60,995 nucleotides of DNA from positions 1 through 60,995 of the forward strand of contig JAGYMU010000004.1 of the NCBI GenBank assembly GCA_018399995.1. Direction: 5' to 3'. The position numbers were made by a program, and so were the translations under genes. The notes beneath the pieces are model-generated. The model was not told the origin of the DNA. It worked only from the letters and a program-made list of their open reading frames with translations, and made no database searches. Positions 8,532 to 56,928 of the stretch are shown here, in pieces. The first letter of the stretch is position 1, and every line of letters begins with the position of its first letter. Source of the stretch: Halanaerobiales bacterium. Its GTDB lineage: Bacteria > Bacillota > Halanaerobiia > Halanaerobiales > M55B127.

Positions 8532-8546
8532 CTCACTTTAATACTT

Positions 8547-10661: not shown

Positions 10662-10678
10662 TTAATGATCACTCCTGT

Positions 10679-15248: not shown

Positions 15249-15281
15249 TTAGATCACATCCCTTTTAAAATTACTTTTCAA

Positions 15282-16631: not shown

Positions 16632-16634
16632 AGA

Positions 16635-38901: not shown

Positions 38902-40794
38902 ATGAAAAATGATGAATTACTAACACATCTAGATCTAAACGATCAGGTTAAAAAGATATTTAAAAATTGCCCTAATTATCAAATAGTAGATGATGTTGAA
39001 ACATTAAAAAATTTATCGGTGAGTAATAAGAAAAAAGGTTGGAATAATGTAAAGTATGATATTGGTAATAATCAAGATTATATTGAAACAAGGGTCAGTG
39101 AGGTTAGAAATGGAATAGCAGCAAATTTTATGGAACCTTACATGCGCAGACGTGATCCCAATTGTATGGTTATAGGAGATGATTATCCTACTGACAAGGT
39201 TAGATATAGAGAAAGATTCGGCTCTGATTTTCAAAAAACAAGAAGTGAGACCTTCCAGTGGTTGAAAAAACAGGAACTGGTAGTATTTTTATTTAAAGCA
39301 GGTCCTGAGAACTTAAATTATCCGGTAATGGCTATAGCTCCTGCTAATGCAGGTTTTTTTGCTTTTGGACTTGCTTTACTTCAAGGGATAACAAAGTTAG
39401 AAGATAATGGTGAAAAGATTAAACCTAAGGGATATATTTTTGTGGCTCCTCCTTTTCGTCATACTCATTTTGATGGTAAACAGATTGTAGTTCACAACAG
39501 GTTAAAAGATAATTATGAGTTGTTTAGTTATAATCTTTATCCGGGACCAAGTGCTAAAAAAGGTGTATATAGTATGTTGATTAACCTTGGTGAAAAAAAT
39601 GAATGGCCTACCTTACATTGTTCAGCTGTTCAGGTTGTTACGCCTTATAATAATAAAATAAACATTGCTTATGAAGGTGCAAGTGGAGCCGGGAAATCAG
39701 AAATGTTAGAGGATATGCATAGAGAAAGAAGCGGTAGAATTTTAATGGGTGAAAATATAGTTACTGATGATCAGTATAAAATCACTTTACCACAGGGATG
39801 TAGTCTAAAACCAATTGCAGATGATATGGCTGTGACACCCTCTTATTTACAGAAAGAAAACGGGAAACTGCAGTTAAAAGATGCTGAAAATGCTTGGTTT
39901 GTAAGGGTTGATCATATTGATCAATATGGTGTGGATCCTCATCTTGAATCCATAACCACAAATCCAGAGAATCCTCTTCTGTTTTTAAATATTGATGCCG
40001 CTCCCCAAAGTACGGCATTAATTTGGGAACATATTGAAGATTATCCTAATAAACCCTGTCCAAACCCACGGGTAGTAATTCCTCGCAAAGATGTTCCGGG
40101 TTCATTAAAGAGGGAAGTGGATATTGATGTAAGGGGCTTCGGAGTCAGAACACCTCCCTGTACAAAGGATAAACCCAGCTATGGAATAATTGGTTTATTC
40201 CACGTTCTGCCACCTACTCTGGCCTGGTTATGGAGGTTGGTATCTCCAAGAGGATATGGTAATCCCAGTATTAACGATTCAGAGGGGATGAGTTCTGAAG
40301 GTGTAGGTTCTTATTGGCCATTTGCTACGGGAAGAAGAGTGGATCAGGCCAATATACTCTTAAAACAAATTATTAATTCACCTGAAGTTAAGTATATACT
40401 GTGTCCCAATCAATATATAGGGTCGTGGAAGGTTGGATTTATGCCAGAATGGATAGCGAGAGAATACTTGGCCCGTCGAGGAGGCGCCTGGTTTACAGAA
40501 AAACAAATAGAACCCTCTCGTTCAACTCTGTTGGGTTATAGTTTAAAGAATGTTATGGTTGAAGGCCAGATGATAGAAAGAGAATTATTAAAGGTAGAAA
40601 CACAACCAAAAGTTGGAGTTAAGGCCTATGACCAGGGGGCAGGGATGCTTGAAGAATTTTTTAAAGATTATTTACAAAACTATAACTGTCAAGACTTACT
40701 CCCTTTGGGGAGAGATATTATCGATTGTTTCCTTAAAGATGGATCTCTTCACGATTTTATTTCATTAATGGATTATCCTGTAATAAAAGAGTAA
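38902..40794 (+). CDS. DUF4914 family protein with PEP-carboxykinase-like motifs
   Basis: YMRRRDP, PPFRHTHFDGKQ, YPGPSAKKG, LHCSA, GASGAGKSE, IADDM, CPNPR. Confidence 0.82.
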   Translation: MKNDELLTHLDLNDQVKKIFKNCPNYQIVDDVETLKNLSVSNKKKGWNNVKYDIGNNQDYIETRVSEVRNGIAANFMEPYMRRRDPNCMVIGDDYPTDKVRYRERFGSDFQKTRSETFQWLKKQELVVFLFKAGPENLNYPVMAIAPANAGFFAFGLALLQGITKLEDNGEKIKPKGYIFVAPPFRHTHFDGKQIVVHNRLKDNYELFSYNLYPGPSAKKGVYSMLINLGEKNEWPTLHCSAVQVVTPYNNKINIAYEGASGAGKSEMLEDMHRERSGRILMGENIVTDDQYKITLPQGCSLKPIADDMAVTPSYLQKENGKLQLKDAENAWFVRVDHIDQYGVDPHLESITTNPENPLLFLNIDAAPQSTALIWEHIEDYPNKPCPNPRVVIPRKDVPGSLKREVDIDVRGFGVRTPPCTKDKPSYGIIGLFHVLPPTLAWLWRLVSPRGYGNPSINDSEGMSSEGVGSYWPFATGRRVDQANILLKQIINSPEVKYILCPNQYIGSWKVGFMPEWIAREYLARRGGAWFTEKQIEPSRSTLLGYSLKNVMVEGQMIERELLKVETQPKVGVKAYDQGAGMLEEFFKDYLQNYNCQDLLPLGRDIIDCFLKDGSLHDFISLMDYPVIKE

Positions 40795-42531: not shown

Positions 42532-42735
42532 ATGACTTACACAGGAACAGTAAAATGGTTTGATGAGAAAAAAGGTTATGGTTTTATTGAGAGAGAAGAT
42601 GGAGACGATGTATTTGTTCACTTTTCAGCTATCCAGGATGATGGTTTTAAGACATTGAATGAAGATCAGGAAGTAGAATTTGAAATCGTGGAAGGCGACC
42701 GCGGCCTACAGGCTGAAAATGTTGTTAAATTATAA
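42532..42735 (+). CDS. cspA: Cold-shock protein
   Basis: [21 protein letters not shown]. Confidence 0.95.
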
Positions 42736-42760
42736 TATATTATTATAAGATATAGCAACT

Positions 42761-42790
42761 AATCCCGACCGGTTAAAGGTCGGGTTTTTT
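42761..42790 (+). terminator. Terminator of the cold-shock gene
   Basis: CCCGACC-GGTTAAA-GGTCGGG-TTTTTT. Confidence 0.85.
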
Positions 42791-42871: not shown

Positions 42872-44053
42872 TTAAAGAGTTTCTACAAGAGTAGTAACTC
42901 CCATTCCACCACCAACACATAATGAAGCTAATCCTCTTTTAAGTTCTCTTTTTTCCATTTCATATAGTAAGGTTACTAATATTCTGGCTCCACTGGCACC
43001 GATAGGATGTCCTAAAGAAATCGCTCCGCCATTTACATTGACAATTTCAGAATCAAAAGGCAGTTCTTTTAGAACTGATAACGATTGAGCAGCAAAAGCT
43101 TCATTGAGCTCAACTAACTGAATATCTTCAAAACCCCAGTTACTTTTTGCAAGGGCTTTTTTAACAGATGGTACTGGAGCAATACCCATAATTTTTGGAT
43201 CGACTGCAGCTGTTGCATATGAAACAACTCTGGCCAGGGGTTTTACCCCTAATTCATCAGCTTTTTCTTTGCTCATTACTAAAAGAGCAGCAGCCCCATC
43301 ATTAATACCGGAAGCATTACCTGCTGTCACTGTGCCATCTTTTTTAAAAGCGGGTCTAAGTTTGGATAAAGAATCAGCAGTGACGCCTTTACGAGGAAAC
43401 TCATCCTGTTTGAATAATTTTGGTTCACCTTTTCTTTGTGGTATCTCTACAGGTACTATCTCATCTTGGAAACGCTTATTTTTTATGGCATTTATTGCTT
43501 TTTGCTGACTTTGAGCAGCAAATTCATCCTGTTTTTGTCTGTTTATATTATATTTTTCTGCTAAATTTTCAGCTGTAATGCCCATGTGGTATTCATTTAC
43601 AGCACAGGTGAGTCCATCTCTAATCATGGAGTCCACAACTTTACCGTCTCCCATTTTATATCCATAACGTGCTTTTTCTAAAAGATAGGGAGCTCTACTC
43701 ATGCTTTCCATACCACCAGCCACAACAACATCTGTATCACCCAATAATATTTCTTGGACGGCAAGATTAACTGATTTAAGTCCAGAACCACATAGTTTGT
43801 TAATAGACATAGCTGGAATTTTTACATCTAAACCTGCTTTAATTGAAGCCTGACGGGCTGGGTTTTGTCCTTGTCCTGCTTGTAATACAATACCCATAAT
43901 AACATTATCAACTACATCTGGATCTACATCTGCTCTCTCGATAACTGTCTTAATAACTTTAGTTCCCAGGTCAACAACTGGAATGTCTTTTAAACCTTTA
44001 CCAAAAGAACCAATTGCAGTTCTTGTTGCACTAGCTATAACAACTTCTCGCAA
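42872..44053 (-). CDS. thlA: Acetyl-CoA acetyltransferase (thiolase)
   Basis: [29 protein letters not shown]. Confidence 0.95.
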
Positions 44054-44095
44054 AAGAATCCCTCCTATATATTTATGTAATCTTTACTTACTATA

Positions 44096-44139
44096 AGTTT
44101 AATAAATAAGTGTTACCTTTAAGTTACAATTGAGTTGCA
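44096..44139 (-). promoter_or_regulatory. Thiolase promoter with three 11-bp-phased repeats
   Basis: Minus strand TGCAAC-N5-TGTAAC-N5-GGTAAC-N10-TAAACT. Confidence 0.75.
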
Positions 44140-44269
44140 ATGTTTTAAAATGATAGTATTATCCACAAATTAATCTAATAATATTTGTTGTTAATATTGG
44201 ACTCTCAATAAGAAATATGTCTTATTTTTTTAAATTTTGCTTGTATAATAAATGATTTGTTTATATTAT

Positions 44270-44298
44270 AGAGGATTTTAAATTGATTTATTGAATTT
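44270..44298 (+). promoter_or_regulatory. SigH-like promoter of the STAND/BTAD regulator
   Basis: AGAGGATTT-N11-ATTGAATTT. Confidence 0.55.
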
Positions 44299-44336
44299 AT
44301 CTTTAACAAGACTTAAAAGAACAGAGGGGTGTAAAA

Positions 44337-47300
44337 GTGTTTGGAAATGTAGTGGTTAAAACTAAATTTCTTCCACAATATTATAAAAGCAAAATATTTT
44401 CTAGAGATGATTTAAAAACCATCGTAAATAAAACTGCTCAGTATCCAGTTTCTATGGTTAAAGCAGGACCTGGTTATGGGAAAAGTGCTTTTTTGACAAA
44501 TGGATTTAAAAATAAGGATTATGTTTTTTGGTATAATGTAAGTACTGGTGATGGGAATGTTTTAACCTTTTTAATTAATTTAATTTATAGTTTTAATACT
44601 ATGGATCCAGAAATAGGTGAAAAGACTTTAAATTTATTAAAAGAAAAGGGAGAAACTAATCAGGAGTGGACACCTGTTTTAAATGCTTTAATTAATGAAA
44701 TTTGGGATAAATATAGATATAAAGAATTATATTTAATAATAGATGACTATCATTTATTAAATAACCAAGCTAAGACGAATAGATTGATTGAACATTTTAT
44801 TGAAAACAGGCCGCCCAATATGCACTTTATTATATCAACCAGAAAAGTCCCAGATATTCACGCTTTAAGTGTTTGGAGGGTTAAAGATCAGATATTAGAA
44901 ATTGATGAAGATGATCTAAAATTAAGTAGAGACGAAATAGAGATTTTTTACAATAAGCATTATGATTATGATCTAAATGATCAAGATCTATCATTAATAT
45001 ATGATTTAACAGAGGGCTGGATTATAGGGGTTGAGATGATAAGACAGAGTATTAAAGAAGGCAATAGTTTAAATCATATTAAGGAACAATCAATGCTCTC
45101 TTTAGAACATCTTTTTAATTATCTAGCTAGCGAAATACTATCTAAACAAAATGAAGAGATAAGAAAATTTTTAATTAAGACTTCTATTTTAAGGGTTTTG
45201 ATTCCCGATGTTTGTAATTTTATACGTGATAAAGATAATAGCGAACAGATATTAAAGTATTTAGTGAAAAATGATCTATTTATTATTCAACTCGATGACC
45301 AAAAATACAGATATCACCATTTATTTCATGATTTTTTGAAAGAACATGCCAAAAAAGAGGTCAAAAATATTGCCCTTCTTCAAAAAGATATAGCCCGCTA
45401 TTTTAAAGAAAACAAACAATATGAAGAAGCGGTTTACCATAATATGGAGAGTGGAGATTACTTTTCCGCCGCACAAATAATTAAAGAAAGAGCTAATAAA
45501 TTATTAACTTCAGGGCGTTTTACAACTTACAATAACTGGTTTGATAAACTTCCGGAAAGAATTATAGAAAATTTCCCCTATTTATACTTGTATAAAGGTG
45601 ACATTGATCGTTTTACATGTAATTATAATCAGGCTTTGGAGTGGTATAATCAGGGCAGAAAGTATTTAAAAAAGCAGAGTGATAACAAAGGAATAAGTGT
45701 GTCTTACCAGAAAATGGCTATGATTTATTTAGATACTGTACAGCCTACTAAAGCAGATAAATATTTAAAAAAGGCTTTGGAACTTAGGGAAAAAGAAAAT
45801 TATTGGGAAGAATCTGTTTTGCTTCGTTTGGTTGCTGAAAATTATTTAAATAGGGGTAATGTCGAAAAAGCTAAAGAAATGCATGGCAAATTAAAGAAAC
45901 TAGACCAGGAAAATACCAGTTATATTCTAGATTCCAGAGTTAAAATTAGAACGGGTAGATTAAAGGAAGCCGAGGAATTATTAGAAGAAGAATTAAAAAA
46001 AGAAGGACTCGTTGATGAAAATAAGGTGGGTAGAGCACACCGCGAAACCATTCTTTTACTTTCTCTGATTGCCTCATTTAAGGGTGATGTAAAAAAAGCT
46101 TTAGAATATGCGAAGATAGGATTGGAAAAATCAAAAAGTTTAGAGTCTTTATTTACCCAGGCAGTTGCCTATATGAGGTTAGGACATGCCTATCAAATTA
46201 ATGGTGAACATTATCAAATGAAAGCAATTCAATCATATGAAAAAAGTTTGGAAATTGTTGATAAGTTAAAAGTTAATAGGGGGCGAGCTGAGGCACTCTG
46301 GGGGTTAACTTTAGTTAATGGTAATTTAGGTTATGAAGAGCAGATGAAAAAATATGGACAGGAAGGTGTCAAAATATGTGAAGAAGCTGGAGATGAATGG
46401 TTGAATTCTTTGATTAAACTTTCTTTGGGTATAGGTTATCATTTTCTAAAAAAATATAAGTTGTCTATAAAGTGGTTAACAGAAGCTGTGAAGTCGTATG
46501 ATTATTGTAATGATATATTTGGTAAGACTATCGGTCAGATATGGCTTACATTAATTGATTGTGAGCTTGGCAATAAGGTTGATTTTAAAAATCGTATCGA
46601 GGAAATTGTTCCTATAATCAAGGAAAATAATATGGAGTTTGTTTTTAAGAAAGTCAATTTAGTAGGTCCACGTGATAAAACAACTTTGATACCTATTTTA
46701 ACAAAGGGTTATAATTTAGATATTGAAAAACAATTTTGTAAATTGATACTTGAGGATTTAGATATTGAGCCAGGCATCAAACATCCCGGTTACAGTTTAA
46801 AAATCAAAACATTAGGTAGGTTTAGCTTGTTAAGAGGGAGAACAGAGATAAAGGATAGTGATTGGAAAAGAAAAAAGGCCAGGACCTTATTTAAAATATT
46901 CTTAACTTATCAAGATGAGTTAATATCAAAAGAAAAACTGGCAGAAATGATCTCTTCTAAAAAAGACAAGAAGACTGCAATTAGGGATTTCAAAGTTGCT
47001 TTAAATGCTTTAAATAATGTTTTGGAACCTAAGAGAGAAGCCCGGGCTACTCCTTTTTTTATCAGAAAAAAAGGAGCTCTTTATGGCTTAAATCCAGATG
47101 CTTCTTACAGTATAGATGTCAATGAATTTGAGTATCTGATTAAAGAAGGTATAAATCAAAAAAACCAAAATAATAGTAATGAGGCTATAGATTATTTTGA
47201 GCGTGCGGATAATCTTTATAATGGAAATTATTTGCCTAACTGTATGTATAAGGATTGGTCCAGAGAAGTCAGAGAAAAGTATAAGCAGCTGTTTATTCAG

Positions 47301-47564
47301 GGTTTAGAACTTTTGGCTGAACTTTACTATGATATGGGGAATTATCATAAAACAATTGAAACAGCAGAAAAACTTATTTCTAAAGAGTCTTCAGTAGAAG
47401 AGGCATATCAGTTAATTATGAAAGCATATAATAAATTAGGTCAACGTACTCAAGCAATTCACACTTACCAACGCTGTGTTAACAATCTAGAAAAAGAGTT
47501 GGGAGTTATTCCAACCCAAAAATCTGTGGAATTATATAAAAAAATTAAGTCAGAACAAAAATAA
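44337..47564 (+). CDS. MalT-like STAND ATPase + TPR + winged-helix/BTAD (SARP-like) transcriptional activator
   Basis: AGPGYGKS, LIIDDYH, TEGW, YRYHHLF; TPR-like helices; C-terminal IKTLGRF..WKRKKARTL and BTAD (IDVNEF, EEAYQLIMKAY, ELGVIP). Confidence 0.9.
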   Translation: MFGNVVVKTKFLPQYYKSKIFSRDDLKTIVNKTAQYPVSMVKAGPGYGKSAFLTNGFKNKDYVFWYNVSTGDGNVLTFLINLIYSFNTMDPEIGEKTLNLLKEKGETNQEWTPVLNALINEIWDKYRYKELYLIIDDYHLLNNQAKTNRLIEHFIENRPPNMHFIISTRKVPDIHALSVWRVKDQILEIDEDDLKLSRDEIEIFYNKHYDYDLNDQDLSLIYDLTEGWIIGVEMIRQSIKEGNSLNHIKEQSMLSLEHLFNYLASEILSKQNEEIRKFLIKTSILRVLIPDVCNFIRDKDNSEQILKYLVKNDLFIIQLDDQKYRYHHLFHDFLKEHAKKEVKNIALLQKDIARYFKENKQYEEAVYHNMESGDYFSAAQIIKERANKLLTSGRFTTYNNWFDKLPERIIENFPYLYLYKGDIDRFTCNYNQALEWYNQGRKYLKKQSDNKGISVSYQKMAMIYLDTVQPTKADKYLKKALELREKENYWEESVLLRLVAENYLNRGNVEKAKEMHGKLKKLDQENTSYILDSRVKIRTGRLKEAEELLEEELKKEGLVDENKVGRAHRETILLLSLIASFKGDVKKALEYAKIGLEKSKSLESLFTQAVAYMRLGHAYQINGEHYQMKAIQSYEKSLEIVDKLKVNRGRAEALWGLTLVNGNLGYEEQMKKYGQEGVKICEEAGDEWLNSLIKLSLGIGYHFLKKYKLSIKWLTEAVKSYDYCNDIFGKTIGQIWLTLIDCELGNKVDFKNRIEEIVPIIKENNMEFVFKKVNLVGPRDKTTLIPILTKGYNLDIEKQFCKLILEDLDIEPGIKHPGYSLKIKTLGRFSLLRGRTEIKDSDWKRKKARTLFKIFLTYQDELISKEKLAEMISSKKDKKTAIRDFKVALNALNNVLEPKREARATPFFIRKKGALYGLNPDASYSIDVNEFEYLIKEGINQKNQNNSNEAIDYFERADNLYNGNYLPNCMYKDWSREVREKYKQLFIQGLELLAELYYDMGNYHKTIETAEKLISKESSVEEAYQLIMKAYNKLGQRTQAIHTYQRCVNNLEKELGVIPTQKSVELYKKIKSEQK

Positions 47565-47657
47565 GAGTTTTAAAAAAAGGCTTTTAAGTTTTGTTTTTCT
47601 TTGAAGATCAAACAAATTTTTGAATGAAAATAGATTCATTTTTATAATTATCAAATG

Positions 47658-47733
47658 GGTTTCACCTCTTTTTGTGAGTAAATTTTTGTTTTCTGTTAAC
47701 AAAAATTAGCAAAAATAGGCGGAACCTTTTTTT
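47658..47733 (+). terminator. Long imperfect hairpin with T7 tail downstream of the regulator
   Basis: GGTTTCACCTCTTTTTG...AATTTTTGTT-loop-AACAAAAATT...CAAAAATAGGCGGAACC-TTTTTTT. Confidence 0.55.
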
Positions 47734-47845
47734 GTTATCAATACTGTTAAATTAGGATTAACTTCTTATGAAATATCTTAGTTATTTATACAAAATATGG
47801 AACACATGTCTTTGATATTATGAAAATCTATTAATGGTAAATCAT

Positions 47846-47878
47846 TGCAACTGTTTTGTAACTTTATTTTATTATAAT
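47846..47878 (+). promoter_or_regulatory. Upstream promoter P1 of the KAS III-like operon
   Basis: TGCAAC-N5-TGTAAC-TTTATTTTAT-TATAAT. Confidence 0.72.
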
Positions 47879-47923
47879 TAAGACAGGCAGATATTTGCTA
47901 TTTGTTTTATTGAGTTAATTATT

Positions 47924-47967
47924 TGTAACTGCAATGCAACATCTTAGTAACTTTATTTTATTATAAT
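47924..47967 (+). promoter_or_regulatory. Downstream promoter P2 of the KAS III-like operon
   Basis: TGTAAC-N5-TGCAAC-N5-AGTAAC-TTTATTTTAT-TATAAT. Confidence 0.78.
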
Positions 47968-47999
47968 GTAAATACAAAGATATCAATGGGGGTGAAGAG

Positions 48000-49010
48000 G
48001 TGCAAGAAAATGTAGGGATACTTTCGACCGGTGTTTATATACCGAACAATTATATGGATAGTAAAGAACTAGCTGAAAAAACTGACATACCAGAAGATGT
48101 AATCAGAGAAAAGTTTGGTATAAAGAAAAAACCCATTCCCGGTGAAAATGATCATACTTGTGCAATGGGAATCAAGGCTGCTAATACTGCGATAAGAAAA
48201 GCAGATATTGATCCTAATGACATCGATCTAGTTATCTGGGCAGGGGCAGAACATAAAGAATATCCAATGTGGACTGCTTCTATCAAATTACAGTATGAAA
48301 TTGGCGCTAAAAAAGCGTGGGCTTTTGACATAGCTCTCAGGTGTGGGACCATGATAATGGCGATGAAAGTTGCCAAAGATATGCTATTATCTAATGATAA
48401 TATGGATACAGTTTTAATTGGATCTGGTTATAGAAATGGTGATTTAATAGATTTTGATAATCCTAGAGTATCATTTATGTATAATCTGGGAGCAGGTGGA
48501 ACAGCCGTTATACTTAAAAAAGGTCTTAATAAAAACATAGTTCTGTCTGCAACTGCAGAAACTGATGGATCTCTCTCAGAAACTGTTGTAGTGCCAGCTG
48601 GAGGTACAAAAAAAGAGCTGACAGCTGAAGGTTTAAAAAACAATGAAAACCATTTAGATGTTATAGATAGTGAATATATGAAAGAAAGGCTTAATGAAGT
48701 TTCACTGGAAAATTTTGTAGGGGTTGTAAAGGATTCTGTTAAAAATAGTGGATATAAAATGAACGATGTAGACTATATTGCAATTCTTCATATGAAGTAT
48801 TCAGCTCACAAGTTTATGTTAGATCAACTGGGTTTAACAGAAGAACAAAGTATTTATCTAAATGAATATGGTCATATAGGTCAAAATGATCAGATAATAT
48901 CTTTAGAATTAGCTTTAAATAAAGGTAAAGTGAAGACGGGAGACCTCGTTGTTTTTGTTAGCGCGGGTATTGGTTATGCCTGGAATGCGCTTACCATTAA
49001 ATGGGGATAG
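48000..49010 (+). CDS. KAS III (FabH)-fold protein with non-canonical active site
   Basis: AFDIALRCG (catalytic Cys), ILHMK, YGHIGQND in place of GNT, AGIGYAW. Confidence 0.85.
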   Translation: MQENVGILSTGVYIPNNYMDSKELAEKTDIPEDVIREKFGIKKKPIPGENDHTCAMGIKAANTAIRKADIDPNDIDLVIWAGAEHKEYPMWTASIKLQYEIGAKKAWAFDIALRCGTMIMAMKVAKDMLLSNDNMDTVLIGSGYRNGDLIDFDNPRVSFMYNLGAGGTAVILKKGLNKNIVLSATAETDGSLSETVVVPAGGTKKELTAEGLKNNENHLDVIDSEYMKERLNEVSLENFVGVVKDSVKNSGYKMNDVDYIAILHMKYSAHKFMLDQLGLTEEQSIYLNEYGHIGQNDQIISLELALNKGKVKTGDLVVFVSAGIGYAWNALTIKWG

Positions 49011-49044
49011 TAAATTTGAAGAATTTAAAAATGGAGGTTTTATT

Positions 49045-49785
49045 ATGAGATTAAAGGATAAGGTTGCAATCATTACAGGTGCTGGAAGTGGTCTGGGAAG
49101 AGCAGGTGCTTTAAGATTTGCAGAAGAGGGTGCAAAAGTAGTTATTGCAGATTATGATAATAAAGCAGGCCAAGAGGTAGAAAAAGAGATTAAAGAGGCT
49201 GGAGGAGAAGCCTGTTTTGTAGAAGTTGATGTATCTAACTGGCAGCAGGTAGAGGATATGGTAGATAAAACAATTGAAAAATATGAAACAGTTGACATAT
49301 TAATTAATAATGCAGGTGTGACTCAGGATTCATTTTTAGTAAAAATGTCTCAAGAACAGTGGGATACAGTTATAGATATAAATCTAAAAGGTGTATTTAA
49401 TTGTACAAAAGCAGTGGCCTCTCTAATGATGGATAAAGGTGAGGGTAAAATTATTAATACCTCTTCTGTTGTAGGTGAGCAAGGTAATGTAGGACAAACT
49501 AATTATTCAGCTACAAAAGCAGGTGTTATTGGAATGACCAAGACCTGGGCAAAAGAGCTTGGTTCTAAAGGTATTAATGTTAATGCAGTAGCTCCAGGTT
49601 ATATAATGACAGAAATGGTCGCAAAAGTTCCTGATAAAATTTTAGAAAAACTCAAAAGCAAAGTACCATTTGGTAAGTTAGGAGAACCAGAAGATATCGC
49701 AAATGCTTATCTATATCTTGCTTCTTCTGAATCAGATTACTGTAATGGAACAATATTAGATGTCAATGGAGGCATTAGTTTATAA
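49045..49785 (+). CDS. FabG/PhaB-like short-chain dehydrogenase (3-oxoacyl-CoA reductase family)
   Basis: TGAGSGLG, ADYD, NNAG, GQTNYSATK, VAPGYI; start at ATG 49045 after GGAGG. Confidence 0.9.
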   Translation: MRLKDKVAIITGAGSGLGRAGALRFAEEGAKVVIADYDNKAGQEVEKEIKEAGGEACFVEVDVSNWQQVEDMVDKTIEKYETVDILINNAGVTQDSFLVKMSQEQWDTVIDINLKGVFNCTKAVASLMMDKGEGKIINTSSVVGEQGNVGQTNYSATKAGVIGMTKTWAKELGSKGINVNAVAPGYIMTEMVAKVPDKILEKLKSKVPFGKLGEPEDIANAYLYLASSESDYCNGTILDVNGGISL

Positions 49786-49812
49786 TATTGAATTCTGAAA
49801 GGAGGAGGATTA

Positions 49813-51105
49813 ATGGATTTCCAAGAACTATATAAACAGAAATTAATTACAATGCCAGAAGCAGTTTCAAAAGTAAAATCCAACCAAAAAGTATGTACAG
49901 CCATGGCTGCTTCAGAGCCGCAGGGTCTTTTAACTGAACTTGGCAAACACAAAAGTGATTTAGAAAATGTTAATGTAGTTTCCTGTTTAATGATGGGAAA
50001 TTACGAGTTCTTAAAACCCGAAATGAAAGGACATTTTCTAAATGAGACCTGGTTTTATGGTCCCGGTGATAGAGCCAATCACAAACATGGCAATGTGACA
50101 TATATTCCAAATAATCTACACGAAGCGGGCAAGATCAAAATAGAAAATGATAATATCAATATATTTTGGGGTACAGCCACCTCAATGGATAAAAATGGAT
50201 TTTTCTCACTTTCTTTAGGTTTAACATATGAAAAACAGATGGTTGAAAATATTGATGTAGTCATGTTAGAGATTAATGAAAATTTACCCTGGACCTTAGG
50301 TGATACGCAGGTTCATATCTCAGATGTGGATTTTGTGGTAGAAAATAATGCACCATTGATTGAGCTACCCTATATAGAGCCGGGTGAAGTAGAAGAACAG
50401 ATTGGCCAAAATGTTGCGAGTCTAATTGAGGACGGATCAACACTTCAGCTTGGTATTGGAGGAATTCCCAATGCTATTGCTCACCATCTTGATGATAAAA
50501 AGGACCTTGGTATCCATACCGAAATGTTTACAGATGGAATGGTTGATCTTTTTAGAAAAGGCATTATAACAAATAAGAAGAAGACGATTTGGAAGGGTAA
50601 AATGGTGGGTACATTTGCCCTTGGTACTCAAAAACTTTATGACTTTATTGATAAGAATTTAGCTGTAGAGTTCCAACAGGGTAAAGTCACTAATGATCCC
50701 TATATACTTGGTCAAAATAATAAGATGGTCAGTATAAATACTGCCTTACAGGTTGATGTTACCGGTCAGGTCTGTTCAGAAGCGATTGGCAATAAACATT
50801 ACAGTGGGACCGGTGGACAGGTCGATACACATCGAGGTGCCCAGAGATCACCCGGAGGTAAGGGGATTATTGCATTAAGGTCAACAGCTAAAGACGGAAA
50901 ATATTCAACAATATTAGCACAACTACCGATAGGTTCTAAAATAACACTTGGTAGAAATGATATAGACTATATAGTTACAGAATATGGAGTAGCCCATTTA
51001 AAAGGGAAAAGTATAAGAGATAGGGTGGATGAGTTAATTAGTATAGCCCACCCGGATTTTAGAGATGAAATAAGGAGAAAAGCTCAGGAGTTGAAGATCT
51101 GGTAA
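49813..51105 (+). CDS. 4-hydroxybutyrate/butyrate:acetyl-CoA CoA-transferase family (Cat2/AbfT-like)
   Basis: ASEP, LQLGIGGIP, HTEMF (catalytic Glu), SGTGGQVD, VTEYG. Confidence 0.9.
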   Translation: MDFQELYKQKLITMPEAVSKVKSNQKVCTAMAASEPQGLLTELGKHKSDLENVNVVSCLMMGNYEFLKPEMKGHFLNETWFYGPGDRANHKHGNVTYIPNNLHEAGKIKIENDNINIFWGTATSMDKNGFFSLSLGLTYEKQMVENIDVVMLEINENLPWTLGDTQVHISDVDFVVENNAPLIELPYIEPGEVEEQIGQNVASLIEDGSTLQLGIGGIPNAIAHHLDDKKDLGIHTEMFTDGMVDLFRKGIITNKKKTIWKGKMVGTFALGTQKLYDFIDKNLAVEFQQGKVTNDPYILGQNNKMVSINTALQVDVTGQVCSEAIGNKHYSGTGGQVDTHRGAQRSPGGKGIIALRSTAKDGKYSTILAQLPIGSKITLGRNDIDYIVTEYGVAHLKGKSIRDRVDELISIAHPDFRDEIRRKAQELKIW

Positions 51106-51212
51106 TGATTATTTTGAAAGGATGTGATATAGAATATTAATTAATTACATTTTAGTAAAATAATTTTTGAAGAGTGAAAATTGTAATAATAAAAATTAAG
51201 GGGGATAAAAAA

Positions 51213-52454
51213 TTGAAGAGAAATAGTATTTTAATTTTTTCATTGGTTGTTATCTTAGCCTTTGCTTTTAGTTTGAGTTCATATGCCCAAGATGATCCAA
51301 TTAAAATTGGTGCTGTTAATCCGTTAGGAGATATTACAGGTGATCAATCTACGAAAGCAATGGAGTTAGCTGTTAAAGAAATTAATGACAATGGTGGGTT
51401 ACTGGGTAGACCGGTTGAACTTATTGTAGTAGATAGTGAATTTAAACCTGAAAAAGGTGCTGCAGCAATTGATAAACTTGCTACAGTAGATGAGGTAGAC
51501 TTTTTTGTTGGTGGTATGTCAAGTGGTGTTCACCAGGCTCAAATACCTAGTTTGAAAAAATATAAAAAAATTACTATATGGGCAGGAGCAGCTTCCTATC
51601 TTGCAGAAGAGGCAATAGGGCCAGATGCAGATTGGTATTTTCACTTACACCCCTGGGATTATCAACAGGGAGAAAGTTATGGAATAGGTTGGTCAGATAT
51701 AGCTGAAGCAAGAGAAGAAGTAGAAATTGGCAAGGTATTTTTAGCTTATGAAGAAGGCGGTTTTGGAACAGCTTCTTTTGAATCATATGAAGTTTTAGCT
51801 GATCAAGCTGATGAAGGTGAAGGACCTTATGCTGACATATTATCAGATTTCGAAGGTGGTTCCTTTAAAAGTGCAGCACTAGGTGGAGGCGAATACCGTG
51901 CTCTATTACGTAGGGCTAAAGAATTTGATCCAGATCTATTTATCTGGGCAGGATATGCTGCAGATGCAATACCATTGTTAGCACAATCCAGAGAAGTCGG
52001 TTTTGAACCACCATTATATGTAGGAGCTCCTCCAGGATGGCCTGCTGATTTTGAAGCTAATCCTTTATCAGATAAGGTAGTTCTATATGGTATGTGGGCA
52101 CCTGCATTAAAAGAAGTAAGTGAAGTTGCTGAACATTTCTGGGATGGATATATCAAAATGCATCAGGAAAGACCCGCAACTTACTTTGCCCCATTAGGTT
52201 ATACTAATATTATGTATCTGGCAAAAGCCATTGAAAATGCTGGTACATTAGAAAAAGAAGCCTTAATTGAGTCTTTAGAAAATACAGAATATGACTCACC
52301 ACTGGGGACTACTCTTAAAATTGCACCGAGTAATGTTATCAAACATCAAGGTTTTACAAGACAAAAGATATTACAGTATCAGGATGGTCAACAACATGTA
52401 ATCTGGCCATTTGAAGTATCAACAGCTGAACTAGAATATCCCTTTTCCTGGTAA
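51213..52454 (+). CDS. LIV/HAAT-family ABC substrate-binding protein
   Basis: Signal peptide, IKIG, INDNGGLLGRPVEL, QYQDG...IWP; start at TTG 51213. Confidence 0.88.
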   Translation: MKRNSILIFSLVVILAFAFSLSSYAQDDPIKIGAVNPLGDITGDQSTKAMELAVKEINDNGGLLGRPVELIVVDSEFKPEKGAAAIDKLATVDEVDFFVGGMSSGVHQAQIPSLKKYKKITIWAGAASYLAEEAIGPDADWYFHLHPWDYQQGESYGIGWSDIAEAREEVEIGKVFLAYEEGGFGTASFESYEVLADQADEGEGPYADILSDFEGGSFKSAALGGGEYRALLRRAKEFDPDLFIWAGYAADAIPLLAQSREVGFEPPLYVGAPPGWPADFEANPLSDKVVLYGMWAPALKEVSEVAEHFWDGYIKMHQERPATYFAPLGYTNIMYLAKAIENAGTLEKEALIESLENTEYDSPLGTTLKIAPSNVIKHQGFTRQKILQYQDGQQHVIWPFEVSTAELEYPFSW

Positions 52455-52464
52455 ATAGACTAAA

Positions 52465-52499
52465 AACAGCCGGGTTATAATATACCCGGCTGTTATTTT
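52465..52499 (+). terminator. Stem-loop after the substrate-binding gene (partial terminator or mRNA stabiliser)
   Basis: AACAGCCGGGT...ACCCGGCTGTT. Confidence 0.7.
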
Positions 52500-52530
52500 A
52501 AAAAAAATATTAAATGGATGGAGGGGAAAA

Positions 52531-53454
52531 ATGTCATTTTCTCTTAATAAATCATATAAGGTATTATTATTATTAGTAATATTTATAGTAATTATTGGCT
52601 TTTGGAATCCTAATGCATTACTCGATGGACTCCAGAGAGGCAGCTTATATTCATTAATAGCACTGCCTTTAGCTTTAGTTTTGGGAATATTAGGGGTTTT
52701 AAATCTTGCACATGGAGAATTCTTGACAGTGGGTTTATACTTTATATTTATGCTAAATAACAGATTTAATTTAGATCCCCTGGTTGCTATTATCCCGACC
52801 GTTATATTTTTACTTATATTAGGAGCTATTATTTATTGGTTGACGATAAAAAGAGTTGTAAAAGAGGGACATTTAAGTCAACTTCTATTAACCTTTGGTA
52901 TATCCTTAATTTTAATTGAAACGATAAATATATTTTGGACTTCAATGGCAAGAAATACTTATACGAGTTATTCATATGCATCAATGGAAGTTGGTGGATT
53001 TAGGTTTGGTACTTATGAACTTCTATATATATTAATTGCAGTTTTAGTTTTGGTAGGTTTACAATTATTTTTGAAAAAAACTCGTTTAGGTCAGGCTACT
53101 TTTGCAGTGGGTCAAAATCCTAAGGGGGCTAAAATAGTAGGTATTAATGTAAATTATGTTTATTTATTTGTTTTTAGTGTTGCTGTAGCAATACTGGGTA
53201 TTGTAGCAGGAGCAATGCTGCCCAGAACAGCGATATTTCCTGAAGTAGGCTCTCCCTTCACACTTAAGTCATTTGCTCTGGCTGCTATGGCAGGTATGGG
53301 TAATTTAAATGGTATATTATTTGCAGGAGTAACTCTTGGAATAGGAGAAGCTGTAATTAATTCAATACCTAATTATGGCGGTTGGTCTGATATCGTATTT
53401 TTTGGAGTACTGATTATAGTCATTATATCACGATCATATCGGGGGGCTAGATAA
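52531..53454 (+). CDS. livH: LivH-like ABC permease
   Basis: VLNLAHGEF, KTRLG, GINV. Confidence 0.85.
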   Translation: MSFSLNKSYKVLLLLVIFIVIIGFWNPNALLDGLQRGSLYSLIALPLALVLGILGVLNLAHGEFLTVGLYFIFMLNNRFNLDPLVAIIPTVIFLLILGAIIYWLTIKRVVKEGHLSQLLLTFGISLILIETINIFWTSMARNTYTSYSYASMEVGGFRFGTYELLYILIAVLVLVGLQLFLKKTRLGQATFAVGQNPKGAKIVGINVNYVYLFVFSVAVAILGIVAGAMLPRTAIFPEVGSPFTLKSFALAAMAGMGNLNGILFAGVTLGIGEAVINSIPNYGGWSDIVFFGVLIIVIISRSYRGAR

Positions 53455-54407
53455 TGAGAAAAAACTTAATTATATTATTATTATTAATAATTGCACTTAC
53501 TCTGCCCTTATATACAGGTGTTTATATTTTGCATATCTTCAGTTCAATATTAATATTTTTAGCATTGAGTTTAAGCTGGGATATGATGTTAAGAACAGGT
53601 CAACTTTCCTTTGGAACTGCAGGATTTTTTGGTTTGGGAGCATATGCTTCTGTTTTGATCGTTGTTAAAATGGGTTTTAATCCGATTTTAAGCCTGTTAA
53701 TAGGAGCGATATTTTCGGGCCTCATAGCTTTTATTTTAGGGTTCATAGTTTTAAGATTAAGAGAAATATACTTTGCAATTACCACCCTGGCTTTAACCCA
53801 TGTATTTTCTGTAATTATCAGGAATTTTTCTGATTTTACGGGTGGAGCAAGTGGAACAATATTAGCTAATGCAATTTTCGAAGGAGATCCAGTTAAGATA
53901 TATTATCTGATTCTTATAGTTGCAGTTTTAGTTATAATAATTTCTGAAGTCTTTAAAAGAAGTAGGATCCACTATGCTATAAATGCAATTCGTAATGATG
54001 AAATTACGGCTAAGTCCAGTGGTATAAACGTATTTAAATACTTATTATTTGTATTTGTAGTTACTTCAGCCATACAGGGTTTGGTGGGAGCTGTTTATGC
54101 TCATCAATATGCTTTTGTTAATCCTGAAAGCACATTTTCACTTAACTTCTTATTGCTTCCCATTGCCATGGCTTTAGTAGGAGGAATATACAGTACAAAC
54201 GGTCCAATTATTGGAGCATTACTTTTAGGTTTAATTTCAGAGTACTTAAAATTAATTATGCCCTATGGTCACTTGATAGTATATGGATTAATTATTGTTT
54301 TTGTTGTCCTATTTCTCCCTAGAGGGATTTATAGTACAATCCATAATAAGTTGTTAAAGAGTAATATCATTGGGGGGGATAAAAATGCCAATACTGCAAG
54401 CAAATAA
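53454..54407 (+). CDS. livM: LivM-like ABC permease
   Basis: TGQLSFG, LRLREIYFAITTLA, AIRNDE, GPIIGA, LPRGI. Confidence 0.85.
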   Translation: MRKNLIILLLLIIALTLPLYTGVYILHIFSSILIFLALSLSWDMMLRTGQLSFGTAGFFGLGAYASVLIVVKMGFNPILSLLIGAIFSGLIAFILGFIVLRLREIYFAITTLALTHVFSVIIRNFSDFTGGASGTILANAIFEGDPVKIYYLILIVAVLVIIISEVFKRSRIHYAINAIRNDEITAKSSGINVFKYLLFVFVVTSAIQGLVGAVYAHQYAFVNPESTFSLNFLLLPIAMALVGGIYSTNGPIIGALLLGLISEYLKLIMPYGHLIVYGLIIVFVVLFLPRGIYSTIHNKLLKSNIIGGDKNANTASK

Positions 54408-55101
54408 TATATTAAGGAAATTCGGTGGTTTAGTTGCTGTAAATGATTTAAGTTTTAGCATGGAAAAAGGTGAGATACTGGGCATTATTGGCCCCAATGG
54501 TGCTGGAAAAACTACAGTGATAAACTTAATGGCGGGCACCTTAGGAGTTAATAAAGGAACAATAGAATTTAAAGATGAGGATATTACTAAAAATGCTGCC
54601 TATATTAGAAACAGGAAAGGTATTGCAAGAACTTTTCAAATTGTAAGACCGCTTGAGAACTTTACTGCAATTGAAAATATTATGGTGGGGGCTCTTTTTG
54701 GTAAAGGTGATAAATTAAATGAAGCCCGCTCATCTGCCCAAAATATATGTAATTTGTTAAATATTAAAAATGTAAATAAGCATGTTGATGAATTAACTGT
54801 TTTAGAGCTGAAAAAAGTTGAATTAGGTAGAGCGCTGGCCGCAGATCCAGAAGTTCTCTTTTTAGATGAAATAATGGCTGGCTTAACCAGTGATGAAACC
54901 TGGGAGTTAATTGATATAGTAAAATCTTTACAAAAAAAAGATATAGCTATAAGTGTAGTAGAGCATATTATGAAAGTAGTTAAAGAATTAACAGATAGAG
55001 TTATAGTATTGAACAAAGGACAAATAATAGCTCAAGGACCTTATGAGGAAGTATCCGAAAACAAAGAAGTAATAGCAGCTTACCTGGGGGAGGAAGAGTA
55101 A
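54385..55101 (+). CDS. livG: LivG-like ABC ATPase
   Basis: FGGLVAV, GPNGAGKTT, GIARTFQ, LDE, VEH, AYLG. Confidence 0.88.
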   Translation: MPILQANNILRKFGGLVAVNDLSFSMEKGEILGIIGPNGAGKTTVINLMAGTLGVNKGTIEFKDEDITKNAAYIRNRKGIARTFQIVRPLENFTAIENIMVGALFGKGDKLNEARSSAQNICNLLNIKNVNKHVDELTVLELKKVELGRALAADPEVLFLDEIMAGLTSDETWELIDIVKSLQKKDIAISVVEHIMKVVKELTDRVIVLNKGQIIAQGPYEEVSENKEVIAAYLGEEE

Positions 55102-55102
55102 T

Positions 55103-55810
55103 ATGCTTGAGATCAACAATTTAAATGTCTCATATGGTAAAATTCAGGTGATTTGGGACTTATCTATGGAAATAAAAGAAAATGAAGCAGTCGGTATTTT
55201 TGGTCCCAATGGGGCCGGCAAAAGTACTTTGATAAATGCAATTATTGGTCTGGTAAAAAACAAAGAAGGTAGTATTAAGTTTAATGAAGAGAAAATAATT
55301 GGCTTAGAAACTCATCAGATAATAAAAAAAGGAATAGCTTTAGTACCCCAAAAAAGAGAACTTTTTCCCATTATGACTGTCAAAGAAAATCTTAAATTAG
55401 GCGCAGCATATATTCCGGAAGCACGTGGTGAAATAAAGCAAAATCTAGAGTTTGTCTATAATATTTTTCCTATTCTTAAAGAAAGAGAGAAGCAACTTGC
55501 TGGTACTATGAGCGGAGGTCAGCAAAGGATGTTAGCAGTGGGTAGAGCTTTAATGTCAAGCCCGAAACTACTCATACTTGATGAACCTTCTGTAGGATTA
55601 CAACCCTCATTGGTGACAGACCTGTTCAAAAAATTGAATGAAATAAAAAAAGAGGATGTTTCGATATTATTAGCTGAACAAAACGTAAAACAGGGATTAA
55701 AGGTTATCGATAGGGGTTATGTATTAGAAAATGGCAAAATAGAGTTAGAAGATGATGCAGAGAACTTGACAAAAAATGAACATATACAAAAATCTTATTT
55801 GGGCATCTAA
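55103..55810 (+). CDS. livF: LivF-like ABC ATPase
   Basis: GPNGAGKST, AGTMSGGQQRML, LDEPSVGL, EQN, YLG. Confidence 0.88.
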   Translation: MLEINNLNVSYGKIQVIWDLSMEIKENEAVGIFGPNGAGKSTLINAIIGLVKNKEGSIKFNEEKIIGLETHQIIKKGIALVPQKRELFPIMTVKENLKLGAAYIPEARGEIKQNLEFVYNIFPILKEREKQLAGTMSGGQQRMLAVGRALMSSPKLLILDEPSVGLQPSLVTDLFKKLNEIKKEDVSILLAEQNVKQGLKVIDRGYVLENGKIELEDDAENLTKNEHIQKSYLGI

Positions 55811-55827
55811 TTTTATTAAAGAAAGGA

Positions 55828-56829
55828 GTGTTCTATTTGGGTGTTAAATTATTAGCAACCGGTTCTTATGCTCCGGATAATACTTATAGTATTGAAGATA
55901 TGAGTGAAATTGTGGGAGAAGATATAAGTGATTTTATGGAGCCATTGGGTATTAAACAGAGGAATATGACTGAATCAGAGATGAGTTCTGCTGATTTAGC
56001 TGTCCAGGCCGGGAAAAGGGCACTAGAGAAATCCGGTCTTTCAGCTAAAGATCTAGATCTATTGATATTATCTACAGATACTCCGGATATCATATCTCCC
56101 CAGAGCTCAGCCATTGTAGCAAATGATTTGGGAATGAGGGACGGTGCTACTTTTTTTGATTTAAATGGTTCTTGTACTGGATTTGTTTTTGCAACAGAGA
56201 CCGCTAAAAATTGGATAGAAGGTAATTCGGATTATGAAACTGTGATGGTGATTTCTACTTATAATATGACTAAATATGCAGATATGAAGAGAGGTAAATT
56301 TTTCTGTGTGTTTTCAGATGGAGCCGGAGCAGCCATTTATAAAAAAGACGAAGAAAAAAAGGGTGTATTATCTTCACACTTTATAGGGAATGGAGATCAG
56401 TGGATGACACTGGGGATTTATGTAGGAGGAACACGTTTTCCCGCTACAGAAAAGAGGATTCAAGGCAACGGTGAGGTTCAACCTAATTTGACTTTTTGGA
56501 AAGGTGAATTGATGAACCGTAATCCAGAACTGTGGCCTGTTATCATAGAGAAAATGCTTGATAAAAGTGATTATCAATTAGAAGATATTGACAAATTTAT
56601 TTTTACACAGATCAATAAATCAGCTATTGCATTAACCTGCGAAAATTTAGGTATAGAGATGGAAAAGACACATAATGTTATGGACAAATACGGTTATACA
56701 GGTAATGCATGTATTATTATGGCATTGAATGATGCCTTAGAAAAAAAAGAGGTAAAAGAAGGGGATTTAGTTTGTCTTACAGCTTCTGGAGTGGGCTATA
56801 CAATGGCGACAATATTAATTAGAATATAA
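55828..56829 (+). CDS. Second KAS III (FabH)-fold protein with non-canonical active site (start may be TTG 55837)
   Basis: TGSYAP, FDLNGSCTGF (Cys), FSDGAGA, FTQIN in place of HQAN, YGYTG in place of GNT. Confidence 0.85.
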   Translation: MFYLGVKLLATGSYAPDNTYSIEDMSEIVGEDISDFMEPLGIKQRNMTESEMSSADLAVQAGKRALEKSGLSAKDLDLLILSTDTPDIISPQSSAIVANDLGMRDGATFFDLNGSCTGFVFATETAKNWIEGNSDYETVMVISTYNMTKYADMKRGKFFCVFSDGAGAAIYKKDEEKKGVLSSHFIGNGDQWMTLGIYVGGTRFPATEKRIQGNGEVQPNLTFWKGELMNRNPELWPVIIEKMLDKSDYQLEDIDKFIFTQINKSAIALTCENLGIEMEKTHNVMDKYGYTGNACIIMALNDALEKKEVKEGDLVCLTASGVGYTMATILIRI

Positions 56830-56854
56830 GGTATAAAAATATCTATAAGCATTA

Positions 56855-56880
56855 CAAAAGGCCCTTTTAAGGGCCTTTTG
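56855..56880. terminator. Bidirectional terminator
   Basis: CAAAAGGCCCTT-TT-AAGGGCCTTTTG. Confidence 0.85.
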
Positions 56881-56928
56881 TCAATTGTAATCTATTGAAT
56901 AATATCAAAATATTAATATTATCTATTT

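Follow-up and report, generated by a model that had tools for sequence, protein, structure and literature searches.

The locus at positions 42872-56881 of a contig from an uncultured Halanaerobiales genus (GenBank assembly GCA_018399995.1, contig JAGYMU010000004.1, positions 1 to 60,995; this whole stretch of 60,995 nucleotides is called the window below) carries a thiolase gene, the gene of a 1075-residue regulator, and an operon. In this operon, a LIV-type importer is joined to enzymes of coenzyme A (CoA)-ester metabolism and to two proteins of the ketoacyl-acyl carrier protein (ACP) synthase III (KAS III) fold, here named kas1 and kas2. We favour, with evenly balanced confidence, the reading that the locus is a self-contained, ligand-switched regulon through which a short (R)-3-hydroxy acid, derived from the polyhydroxyalkanoate (PHA) of other organisms, is taken up and catabolised in a CoA-dependent manner. 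The substrate is most likely 3-hydroxybutyrate (3HB) or 3-hydroxyvalerate, and possibly their small oligomers. What is observed comprises the genes and their conservation, the altered triads, the operator, the tie to PHA-depolymerase-family genes and the presence in RNA libraries; we infer the substrate, the direction of flux and the reactions of both KAS proteins. The enzyme set of the operon would supply a complete, ATP-free route from (R)-3-hydroxy acid through acyl-CoA and 3-oxoacyl-CoA to acetyl-CoA. Two observations point to the scavenging of exogenous PHA-derived monomers or oligomers: the module is linked to PHA-depolymerase-family esterases, and no PHA synthase turned up in 61 Halanaerobiales genomes.

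In the proposed mechanism, an inducer would be bound by the STAND sensor half of the regulator. Its SARP-type end would then bind 11-nt-spaced heptads overlapping the -35 position, activating both the thiolase gene (thl) and the kas1 operon. The acid would be imported by the LIV-type system, and its acyl-CoA would be made by the CoA-transferase at no ATP cost. The resulting (R)-3-hydroxyacyl-CoA would be oxidised to 3-oxoacyl-CoA by the short-chain dehydrogenase/reductase (SDR), which a thiolase-superfamily enzyme would cleave to acetyl-CoA, with ATP gained via acetate formation.

In microbial mats and saline sediments, much of the stored carbon is PHA, and the use of its breakdown products by strict fermenters is little known. 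The catabolism of 3-hydroxy acids is familiar; what is unusual here is the importer, the architecture of the regulator and the two uncharacterised thiolase-fold enzymes. The locus defines a conserved and widespread module with a clear operator and sensor, tied to PHA-depolymerase-family esterases in hosts without a detected PHA synthase. No published description of the module or of either KAS subfamily was found in a search that covered neither supplements nor most subscription journals.

Gene content and boundaries of the locus

The source assembly is 2.19 Mb in size and 80% complete, and the GC content of the window is low (26-38%). The eleven genes that an initial annotation, made from the letters alone, had placed at the locus were all recovered in position and family when the open reading frames (ORFs) were searched against Pfam and NCBIfam. 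The thl gene (42872-44053) lies on the minus strand, divergent from the regulator gene (44337-47564, + strand). The operon follows on the + strand in the order kas1 (48000-49010), SDR (49045-49785), CoA-transferase (49813-51105), periplasmic substrate-binding protein (SBP; 51174-52454), livH (52531-53454), livM (53454-54407), livG (54370-55101), livF (55103-55810) and kas2 (55828-56829). Gaps within it range from about -38 nt, a 38-nt overlap, up to +76 nt. The ORF of the SDR was listed from 48949, and the ATG at 49045, standing behind GGAGG, is its likely start.

The unit ends, as had been proposed, at a terminator. This is a bidirectional hairpin of 12 bp at 56854-56881 (-20.2 kcal/mol, z = -5.97), recognised by RNA folding where a simple terminator scan had not flagged it, and it is common to the operon and to a convergent peptide-permease operon. 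The genes flanking the locus are unrelated to it (UPF0014 with an ABC ATPase, DUF4914, csp and Opp-type permeases), and the description of a self-contained unit with one shared operator stands.

A fatty-acid synthesis cluster is ruled out by the altered triads of both KAS proteins, by the lack of an ACP and by the location of the housekeeping genes, a canonical fabH and a fabG, on a different contig of the assembly (C1). In line with the initial annotation, no ACP, malonyl-transferase or FabZ family member was found among the window ORFs scanned. The operon gaps leave no room for an ACP-sized ORF, and its 435-nt leader has only ORFs of 29 and 50 residues.

Enzymes and importer

The product of thl contains the Thiolase_N and Thiolase_C domains and scores 500.5 bits on TIGR01930 (cut-off 240.55), as a biosynthetic-type acetoacetyl-CoA thiolase. 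Its motifs LCGSG, GHPIG and CVGGG, read by eye, are those that we take to be the catalytic Cys/His/Cys motifs of thiolases. The SDR is a FabG-like 3-oxoacyl thioester reductase or (R)-3-hydroxyacyl-CoA dehydrogenase that exceeds two FabG cut-offs (NF004198, 313.8 against 296 bits; TIGR01830, 306.4 against 297.75 bits). Among solved structures, it is closest to 4nbu (310 bits) and next to 2et6 (269 bits), the portion of a yeast multifunctional enzyme that acts as (3R)-hydroxyacyl-CoA dehydrogenase. Its second strand ends, by eye, in VVIAD, and the Asp at this place, presumably a mark of NAD(H) preference in SDRs, suggests an NAD(H)-type site. The CoA-transferase belongs to family I and is of the 4-hydroxybutyrate (4HB) / butyryl-CoA:acetate type, with AcetylCoA_hydro N- and C-terminal domains (Pfam). 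It matches PDB entries 3eh7 (E 5e-112) and 3gk7 (E 8e-107), so that the nearest solved proteins are 4HB CoA-transferases. On TIGR03948, the butyryl-CoA:acetate equivalog, it scores 304.2 bits against 674.8, far under.

The importer is complete as a HAAT/LIV system, with the SBP, two BPD_transp_2 permeases (livH and livM), two ABC_tran ATPases (livG and livF) and BCA_ABC_TP_C. The SBP has a signal-like N-terminal segment and scores 137 bits on Peripla_BP_6. It fails the LivJ/LivK model NF011933 (48.4 bits, cut-off 477), scores 48-51 bits on Liv and Urt models, and has weak solved relatives (best PDB E 3e-12). HAAT/LIV transporters are known to carry ligands other than amino acids, such as urea, amides, aromatic and fatty acids. 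The five-component LivKHMGF set is shared with these transporters, whereas the SBP is far from all characterised ones.

The generic LIV and FabH/FabG annotations of these genes would agree with an ordinary branched-chain amino acid importer, joined by chance to spare FabH/FabG paralogues. We regard this as extremely improbable, given an SBP at 48 bits on a LivJ/K model that asks for 477, altered triads in two KAS proteins that both fall under the FabH cut-offs, and housekeeping fabH and fabG elsewhere in the genome. The module and its regulator are, moreover, conserved across phyla, and no aminotransferase or keto-acid dehydrogenase is present at the locus.

The gap between the SBP gene and livH holds a perfect, GC-rich palindrome, found in a hairpin scan at 52465-52494. 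It may attenuate or stabilise the transcript, giving more binding protein than permease.

Regulator and operator

The regulator joins a MalT-like STAND N-terminal half, with TPRs, to a C-terminal SARP-type BTAD domain. Residues 7-527 align to MalT (NF003420) at 242.4 bits, under the equivalog cut-off of 537, and contain the P-loop GPGYGKS, read by eye. The BTAD domain at residues 926-1070 scores 87.5-88.9 bits (Pfam), and residues 849-1070 give a weak alignment of 20 bits to the SARP proteins BagI/FevR. No winged helix (Trans_reg_C) was found ahead of the BTAD in a Pfam search at E up to 1. The P-loop STAND and TPR sensor half is a likeness to MalT, but the LuxR-type helix-turn-helix of that protein is absent and the C-terminus is BTAD instead. 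The BTAD output, and an operator of heptads at 11-nt spacing by the -10 element, are likenesses to the SARP/AfsR regulators. In contrast to AfsR, the domain order is reversed, with the sensor first and the SARP part last, and the regulator presumably controls a catabolic-looking operon in a Firmicute-type anaerobe. Its homologues in related clusters are 27-41% identical.

The motif TGCAAC-N6-GTAACTT occurs at 44121-44139 (-), 47846-47864 (+) and 47935-47953 (+). These three occurrences in the window compare with 0.06 expected by chance, none of 100 shuffles gave three, and the strict form is found at these sites alone in the whole 2.19-Mb assembly. Each site consists of three heptads at 11-nt spacing, immediately upstream of a TATAAT-like box. 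One faces thl (44111-44139, - strand) with the heptads TGCAACT, TGTAACT and GGTAACA, followed by a TATAGT-like -10. The other two face kas1 in tandem: the promoter/operator P1 (47836-47894, + strand; repeat family D3) has heptads followed by TATTATAAT, and P2 (47924-47983, + strand) has TGTAACT, TGCAACA and AGTAACT, again followed by TATTATAAT. The same operator repeats thus stand at both sides of the regulator, as first annotated. Heptad direct repeats at 11-nt spacing beside a -10 element are a hallmark of SARP activators, and the heptads are probably the regulator's operator, in a SARP-type layout.

Both kas1 sites are identical letter for letter in relatives (L002 and L003) whose proteins are 76-87% identical and in which the spacer around the sites has diverged, and they are conserved in L124 as well. 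Other Halanaerobiales families have the variant TGTAAC-N5-TGTAAC, then TATAAT, ahead of cluster genes. In two loci (L157 and L158), the heptad operator stands directly upstream of the PhaZ-type gene, and it also precedes kas1, the CoA-transferase gene and the SBP gene. A STAND-SARP regulator with so simple a heptad operator could be a ready-made inducible switch. The start region of the regulator gene (44326-44352) also resembles that of kas1 (47989-48015), with 74% identity over 27 nt, and both contain GGGGTG, a spacer and GTG.

Two KAS III-fold proteins with altered active sites

Both KAS proteins contain the ACP_syn_III and ACP_syn_III_C domains (Pfam). Their AlphaFold2 models (pLDDT 91.6 for kas1, 91.2 for kas2) have the FabH fold in Foldseek comparisons (TM 0.85-0.89 and 0.84-0.90), and fold searches with both returned FabH-type structures only. 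This fold, the domains and the active-site Cys are shared with FabH and with the KAS III-fold enzymes CerJ, DpsC, PqsD, PqsBC, BioZ and OleA. The kas1 protein is a full member of NF005308/PRK06840 ('3-oxoacyl-ACP synthase'), with 508.9 bits against a cut-off of 315, and kas2 stays under that cut-off with 159.9 bits. On the FabH model TIGR00747 (cut-off 292 bits), both are under, with 133 bits for kas1 and 186.8 for kas2, and kas2 is under every FabH model cut-off in NCBIfam.

The active-site positions, taken from alignments to solved FabH and to family members, justify the term non-canonical used in the initial annotation. In kas1 they are Cys115-His264-His292, the last His replacing Asn, and the 16-member family alignment also has a conserved Glu84-His-Lys-Glu stretch 31 residues ahead of the Cys, its Glu being Gln in two members. 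In kas2 they are Cys116, Thr260 at the His position and Tyr290 at the Asn position, accompanied by a near-invariant Asp84 within an S-T-D-T-P-D stretch and a near-invariant Cys295; the sole true FabH in this family alignment (P0107) has the canonical residues. Counts of motif conservation across loci are partly circular, because the loci were retrieved through the same motifs. A further difference from FabH is that kas1 and kas2 lie within an importer/CoA-ester operon with no ACP. The altered triads make ordinary malonyl-ACP condensation unlikely, most of all for kas2. Both proteins are core parts of the module, and probably neither is an ordinary malonyl-ACP condensing enzyme.

For kas1, the role that we favour is a thiolase-like Claisen or retro-Claisen reaction on 3-oxoacyl-CoA without decarboxylation, since 15 of 21 kas1 clusters have no thiolase and since two His and a conserved acidic residue are kept. 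This acidic residue presumably is located where HMG-CoA synthase and OleA have their base. For kas2, the favoured role would be acyl transfer via an acyl-S-Cys intermediate, in step with an esterase, because both enolate-stabilising residues are lost and an esterase gene is usually coupled. A BioZ-type biotin route was considered, BioZ being among the solved relatives of kas2, and was rejected for want of supporting context and of the canonical triad, which BioZ carries.

An acyl-accepting Cys that is kept in both proteins could also act on esters directly. In such a thiolytic cleavage, 3HB oligomers or esters would be imported, and the KAS III-like Cys would take the acyl group of the oxoester and pass it to CoA, saving the ester bond energy. 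The loss of the enolate-stabilising His and Asn in kas2 fits this, as do the KAS III-fold O-acyltransferases CerJ, ChlB3 and DpsC among the solved relatives of kas1, and the esterase and KAS genes that are adjacent or overlapping in many lineages. ATP-free activation would be most useful to fermenters, and many clusters use AMP-ligases, which are costly if needed per monomer. However, the ester-to-thioester direction is not known to us from any protein of the KAS III fold, the clusters already have esterases that would make thiolysis redundant, and the CoA-transferase of the window already gives activation without ATP. The kas1 module is also present in aerobic Bacillaceae. We consider such a reaction very unlikely. 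A wider proposal holds that these are two new catabolic KAS III-fold subfamilies, of which Cys-His-His with Glu would serve thiolytic C-C cleavage, and Cys-Thr-Tyr with Asp would form a CoA-dependent 'thiolytic esterase' on imported 3-hydroxyalkanoate oligomers. It appears quite unlikely; if true, the energy of the ester bonds in the storage polyester of others would be harvested by fermenters that have no PHA synthase.

Both families are large and conserved, and are annotated everywhere as 'ketoacyl-ACP synthase III', so that knowing their reactions would correct thousands of annotations. The reactions might also reveal thiolase-fold catabolic chemistry useful for polyester recycling or CoA-ester biocatalysis.

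The kas1 module and its link to the PHA depolymerase family

The kas1 protein is 57-62% identical to proteins of many Bacillaceae, and a Bacillaceae member used as query found 73 metagenome kas1 loci. The recurrent order in these loci is regulator-SBP-livG-livF-livH-livM-kas1-hydrolase-SDR-ligase. Neighbours were counted in the 21 of these loci that are flanked by 4 kb or more on each side, one of which (L124) is a near-identical relative of the window. LIV genes accompany kas1 in all 21 loci, an SDR in 19, a hydrolase labelled PhaZ-type in 18, an AMP-ligase in 15 and a regulator in 14; a CoA-transferase and a thiolase occur in six each, and kas2 in three. Of the 18 labelled hydrolases, 15 share at least 52% identity with that of a Bacillaceae-like contig (L082), and such a hydrolase lies immediately 3' of kas1 in 40 of the 73 loci. 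The L082 hydrolase itself scores 466.9 bits on NF050089, the model of intracellular short-chain-length PHA depolymerase (cut-off 300), and matches the PDB entries 8ynv/8ynw, 'poly(3-hydroxybutyrate) depolymerase', over its full length (E 2e-88). The entry 8YNV is listed as Bacillus thuringiensis in Table 1 of PMC12278694.

The window itself holds no gene of this hydrolase family, but its genome has one PhaZ-type gene, on contig C167 (L154) at 11907-12800 on the minus strand, with 421 bits on NF050089. The encoded hydrolase has no signal peptide, is cytoplasmic, contains the nucleophile motif GWSTG and is 51.5% identical to the hydrolase after kas1 in Bacillaceae-like contigs. Its gene stands alone, next to genes of a GNAT-like protein, an ABC-2 exporter and an encapsulin-EncFtn pair.

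In a survey of 61 Halanaerobiales genomes, kas1 and PhaZ-type genes were counted over the model cut-offs, and the tables were combined by hand. The kas1 gene is present in 26 genomes and the PhaZ-type gene in 23. Both are present in 21, plus one with a partial PhaZ-type gene at a contig end; kas1 alone is found in four (62-93% complete), the PhaZ-type gene alone in two, and neither in 33. The PhaZ-type gene thus occurs in 21-22 of 26 kas1 carriers against 2 of 35 non-carriers, among related genomes that are not independent and metagenome-assembled genomes (MAGs) that are incomplete. In 11 genomes, a single contig carries both genes, 0.2-6 kb apart. The 61 genomes, of which 48 are at least 90% complete, yielded no PHA synthase (TIGR01836, E up to 1e-10) in a search that detected the Caulobacter synthase used as control; this argues for an exogenous substrate. 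Other Halanaerobiales families have the arrangement regulator-PhaZ-LIV-kas1-SDR-CoA-transferase, without kas2. Among the Halanaerobiales, only the genus of the window (genomes G000-G012) has kas2-like genes, which score about 150-168 bits on the PRK06840 model, and it is also here that the PhaZ-type gene is unlinked from kas1.

The locus resembles the classical mobilisation of 3HB and poly(3-hydroxybutyrate) (PHB) in its thiolase, its (R)-specific FabG/PhaB-like SDR and its CoA activation, and in a PhaZ-family (NF050089) esterase that is linked in relatives and present in this genome. It differs in importing by a LIV-type ABC system, in activating by a 4HB-type CoA-transferase where the classical route uses BdhA and SCOT, in adding two KAS III-fold proteins and a STAND-SARP activator, and in residing in hosts without detectable PHA synthase.

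The kas2 module in other genomes

Genes like kas2 were found in at least 596 species, in a scan of one genome per species whose patterns were the family's own motifs, so that motif counts in the resulting loci are circular. Neighbours were counted by tblastn within 9 kb in 53 loci with at least 4 kb on each side. An AMP-ligase is present in 47 of these loci, an alpha/beta-hydrolase of another type in 43, an SDR in 27, MaoC in 20, LIV genes in 12, a regulator in seven and a hydrolase labelled PhaZ-like in six; CoA-transferase, kas1 and thiolase occur in four each. In many kas2 loci, the hydrolase gene abuts or overlaps the kas2 start. With the kas1 counts, this survey shows PhaZ-family hydrolases, MaoC, acyl-CoA ligases and BTAD regulators co-occurring with both KAS III-like families, and gives a positive answer on the link to PHA breakdown products that the initial annotation had suggested.

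The whole operon of the window occurs in syntenic copy in Halanaerobiales MAGs (L002-L005), and in rearranged versions in other Bacillota, Anaerolineae, Caldisericota, Ignavibacteria and KSB1. The kas1 and kas2 families each occur alone in most lineages. A compact triad of hydrolase, kas2 and AMP-ligase is present across many phyla (Acidobacteriota, Myxococcota, Bdellovibrionota, Gemmatimonadota and others). It is often joined by MaoC, a TonB-type outer-membrane barrel, a carboxylesterase or a class III PhaC-like gene. Relatives of kas2 at 36-38% identity are also present in Thorarchaeota and Promethearchaeota MAGs.

In other phyla, kas2 is coupled to hydrolases of another type, which resemble PcaD/Est1 and are uncharacterised. 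They score best on 3-oxoadipate enol-lactonase models (118-170 bits, under the cut-off of 256), and their best solved relative is an esterase (Est1) whose substrate is unstated. This brings in another imported ester, lactone or organic acid as the substrate, such as an enol-lactone, a beta-diketo acid or medium-chain 3-hydroxy fatty acids from lipids, with the name of the PHA depolymerase family then being a label only. The ligases of kas2 clusters, which are of medium- or long-chain type, agree with such a substrate, as do the TonB-type outer-membrane proteins and the carboxylesterase adjoining kas2 in Acidobacteriota, and an SCP-x thiolase with a DUF35 protein in one locus (L068). However, the CoA-transferase of the window is nearest to short-chain (4HB/butyrate) enzymes, the linked hydrolase of Halanaerobiales is over the cut-off of the short-chain-length PHA depolymerase, and no acyl-CoA dehydrogenase or hydratase for longer chains was found. 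We consider both the other substrate and the emptiness of the family name unlikely.

The co-occurrence of hydrolase, KAS, ligase and SDR in distant loci also led us to consider the OleABCD / beta-lactone pathway. Distant kas2 clusters put the same four protein classes side by side, namely the thiolase-fold OleA, the alpha/beta-hydrolase OleB, the AMP-ligase-like OleC and the SDR OleD. For the window, this pathway was rejected: the OleA triad, Cys-His-Asn, is absent, the SDR is of FabG type, and the operon has no ligase or hydrolase. Solved OleA-type entries align with kas2 only over residues 38-148.

The flux could also run in the anabolic direction. After activation, an imported acid would be lengthened in a Claisen condensation of KAS III type, and the SDR would reduce the product to an (R)-3-hydroxyacyl-CoA destined for a polyester, a lipid or a signal molecule. 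The Cys-His-His of kas1 is the triad of the KAS I/II condensing enzymes, the SDR is over the FabG cut-off, and SARP regulators usually control biosynthetic clusters. PhaC-like matches occur in 3 of the 53 kas2 loci, and in one (L054) kas2 is adjoined by MaoC and a class III PhaC-like gene (353.5 bits, cut-off 365.3). Yet no PhaC was found in the 61 Halanaerobiales genomes, and no ACP, dehydratase, enoyl reductase, thioesterase or exporter is present at the locus. The kas2 protein lacks residues that decarboxylative condensation requires, the combination of an ABC importer and a MalT-like sensor typically marks a catabolic regulon, and the SDR site is of NAD type by eye, which together leave an anabolic module distinctly improbable.

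Several points weigh against 3-hydroxy acid scavenging as well. The SBP is without a close characterised relative. The operon of the window has no esterase, and the PhaZ-type gene of the same genome lies apart on C167, with no operator ahead of it. For a plain 3HB route, the two KAS III-like proteins are not required, and such a route neither predicts nor explains them. The PcaD/Est1-like hydrolases coupled to kas2 elsewhere, in clusters often with long-chain-type ligases and TonB-type outer-membrane proteins, indicate that the kas2 family may serve other esters. An SDR over the FabG cut-off makes the reductive direction formally possible, and co-occurrence overstates the support because related genomes are not independent. 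In the 80%-complete genome, extracellular PHB esterase (PF10503) and MaoC were not found.

RNA libraries

Seven RNA-library runs from two salt-lake studies contain 30-85% of the sampled words of the operon. RNA contigs were placed on the locus for four of 21 listed runs. At 95-100% identity, they span SDR/CoA-transferase/SBP (49418-52037), SBP/livH, and livH through kas2 (53317-56470), and one reads across the SBP/livH hairpin. Bridging contigs are no proof that the operon is transcribed as one unit, and DNA may be present in RNA libraries.

Other features of the window

Between the upstream operon and thl lies an unlisted csp gene of a 67-residue cold-shock protein (42533-42736, + strand), with a hairpin resembling a terminator 3' of it (42764-42784). 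The Rfam cspA thermoregulator matches partially at 42595-42789, with 39.9 bits, below its gathering score of 78. In each of the four RNA libraries placed, contig depth is by far greatest over the csp stretch. The depths in library X2 (csp 3670, operon 15-62, regulator 0-1.6) were unused for ranking expression, as contigs carry one depth each.

Farther upstream, a 630-residue DUF4914 protein (983 bits) is encoded at 38902-40794 on the + strand, and the genes that come after it encode an ABC ATPase and a membrane protein of the UPF0014 family. On the minus strand, a molybdopterin enzyme of the xanthine-dehydrogenase family with three subunits is encoded at 23569-27198. The minus-strand cluster at 6732-17375 contains Mrp-antiporter-like subunits, complex-I-like (NiFe-hydrogenase-type) 20, 30 and 49 kDa subunits and an FeS/pyridine-nucleotide oxidoreductase, and is probably an ion-translocating hydrogenase-type complex.

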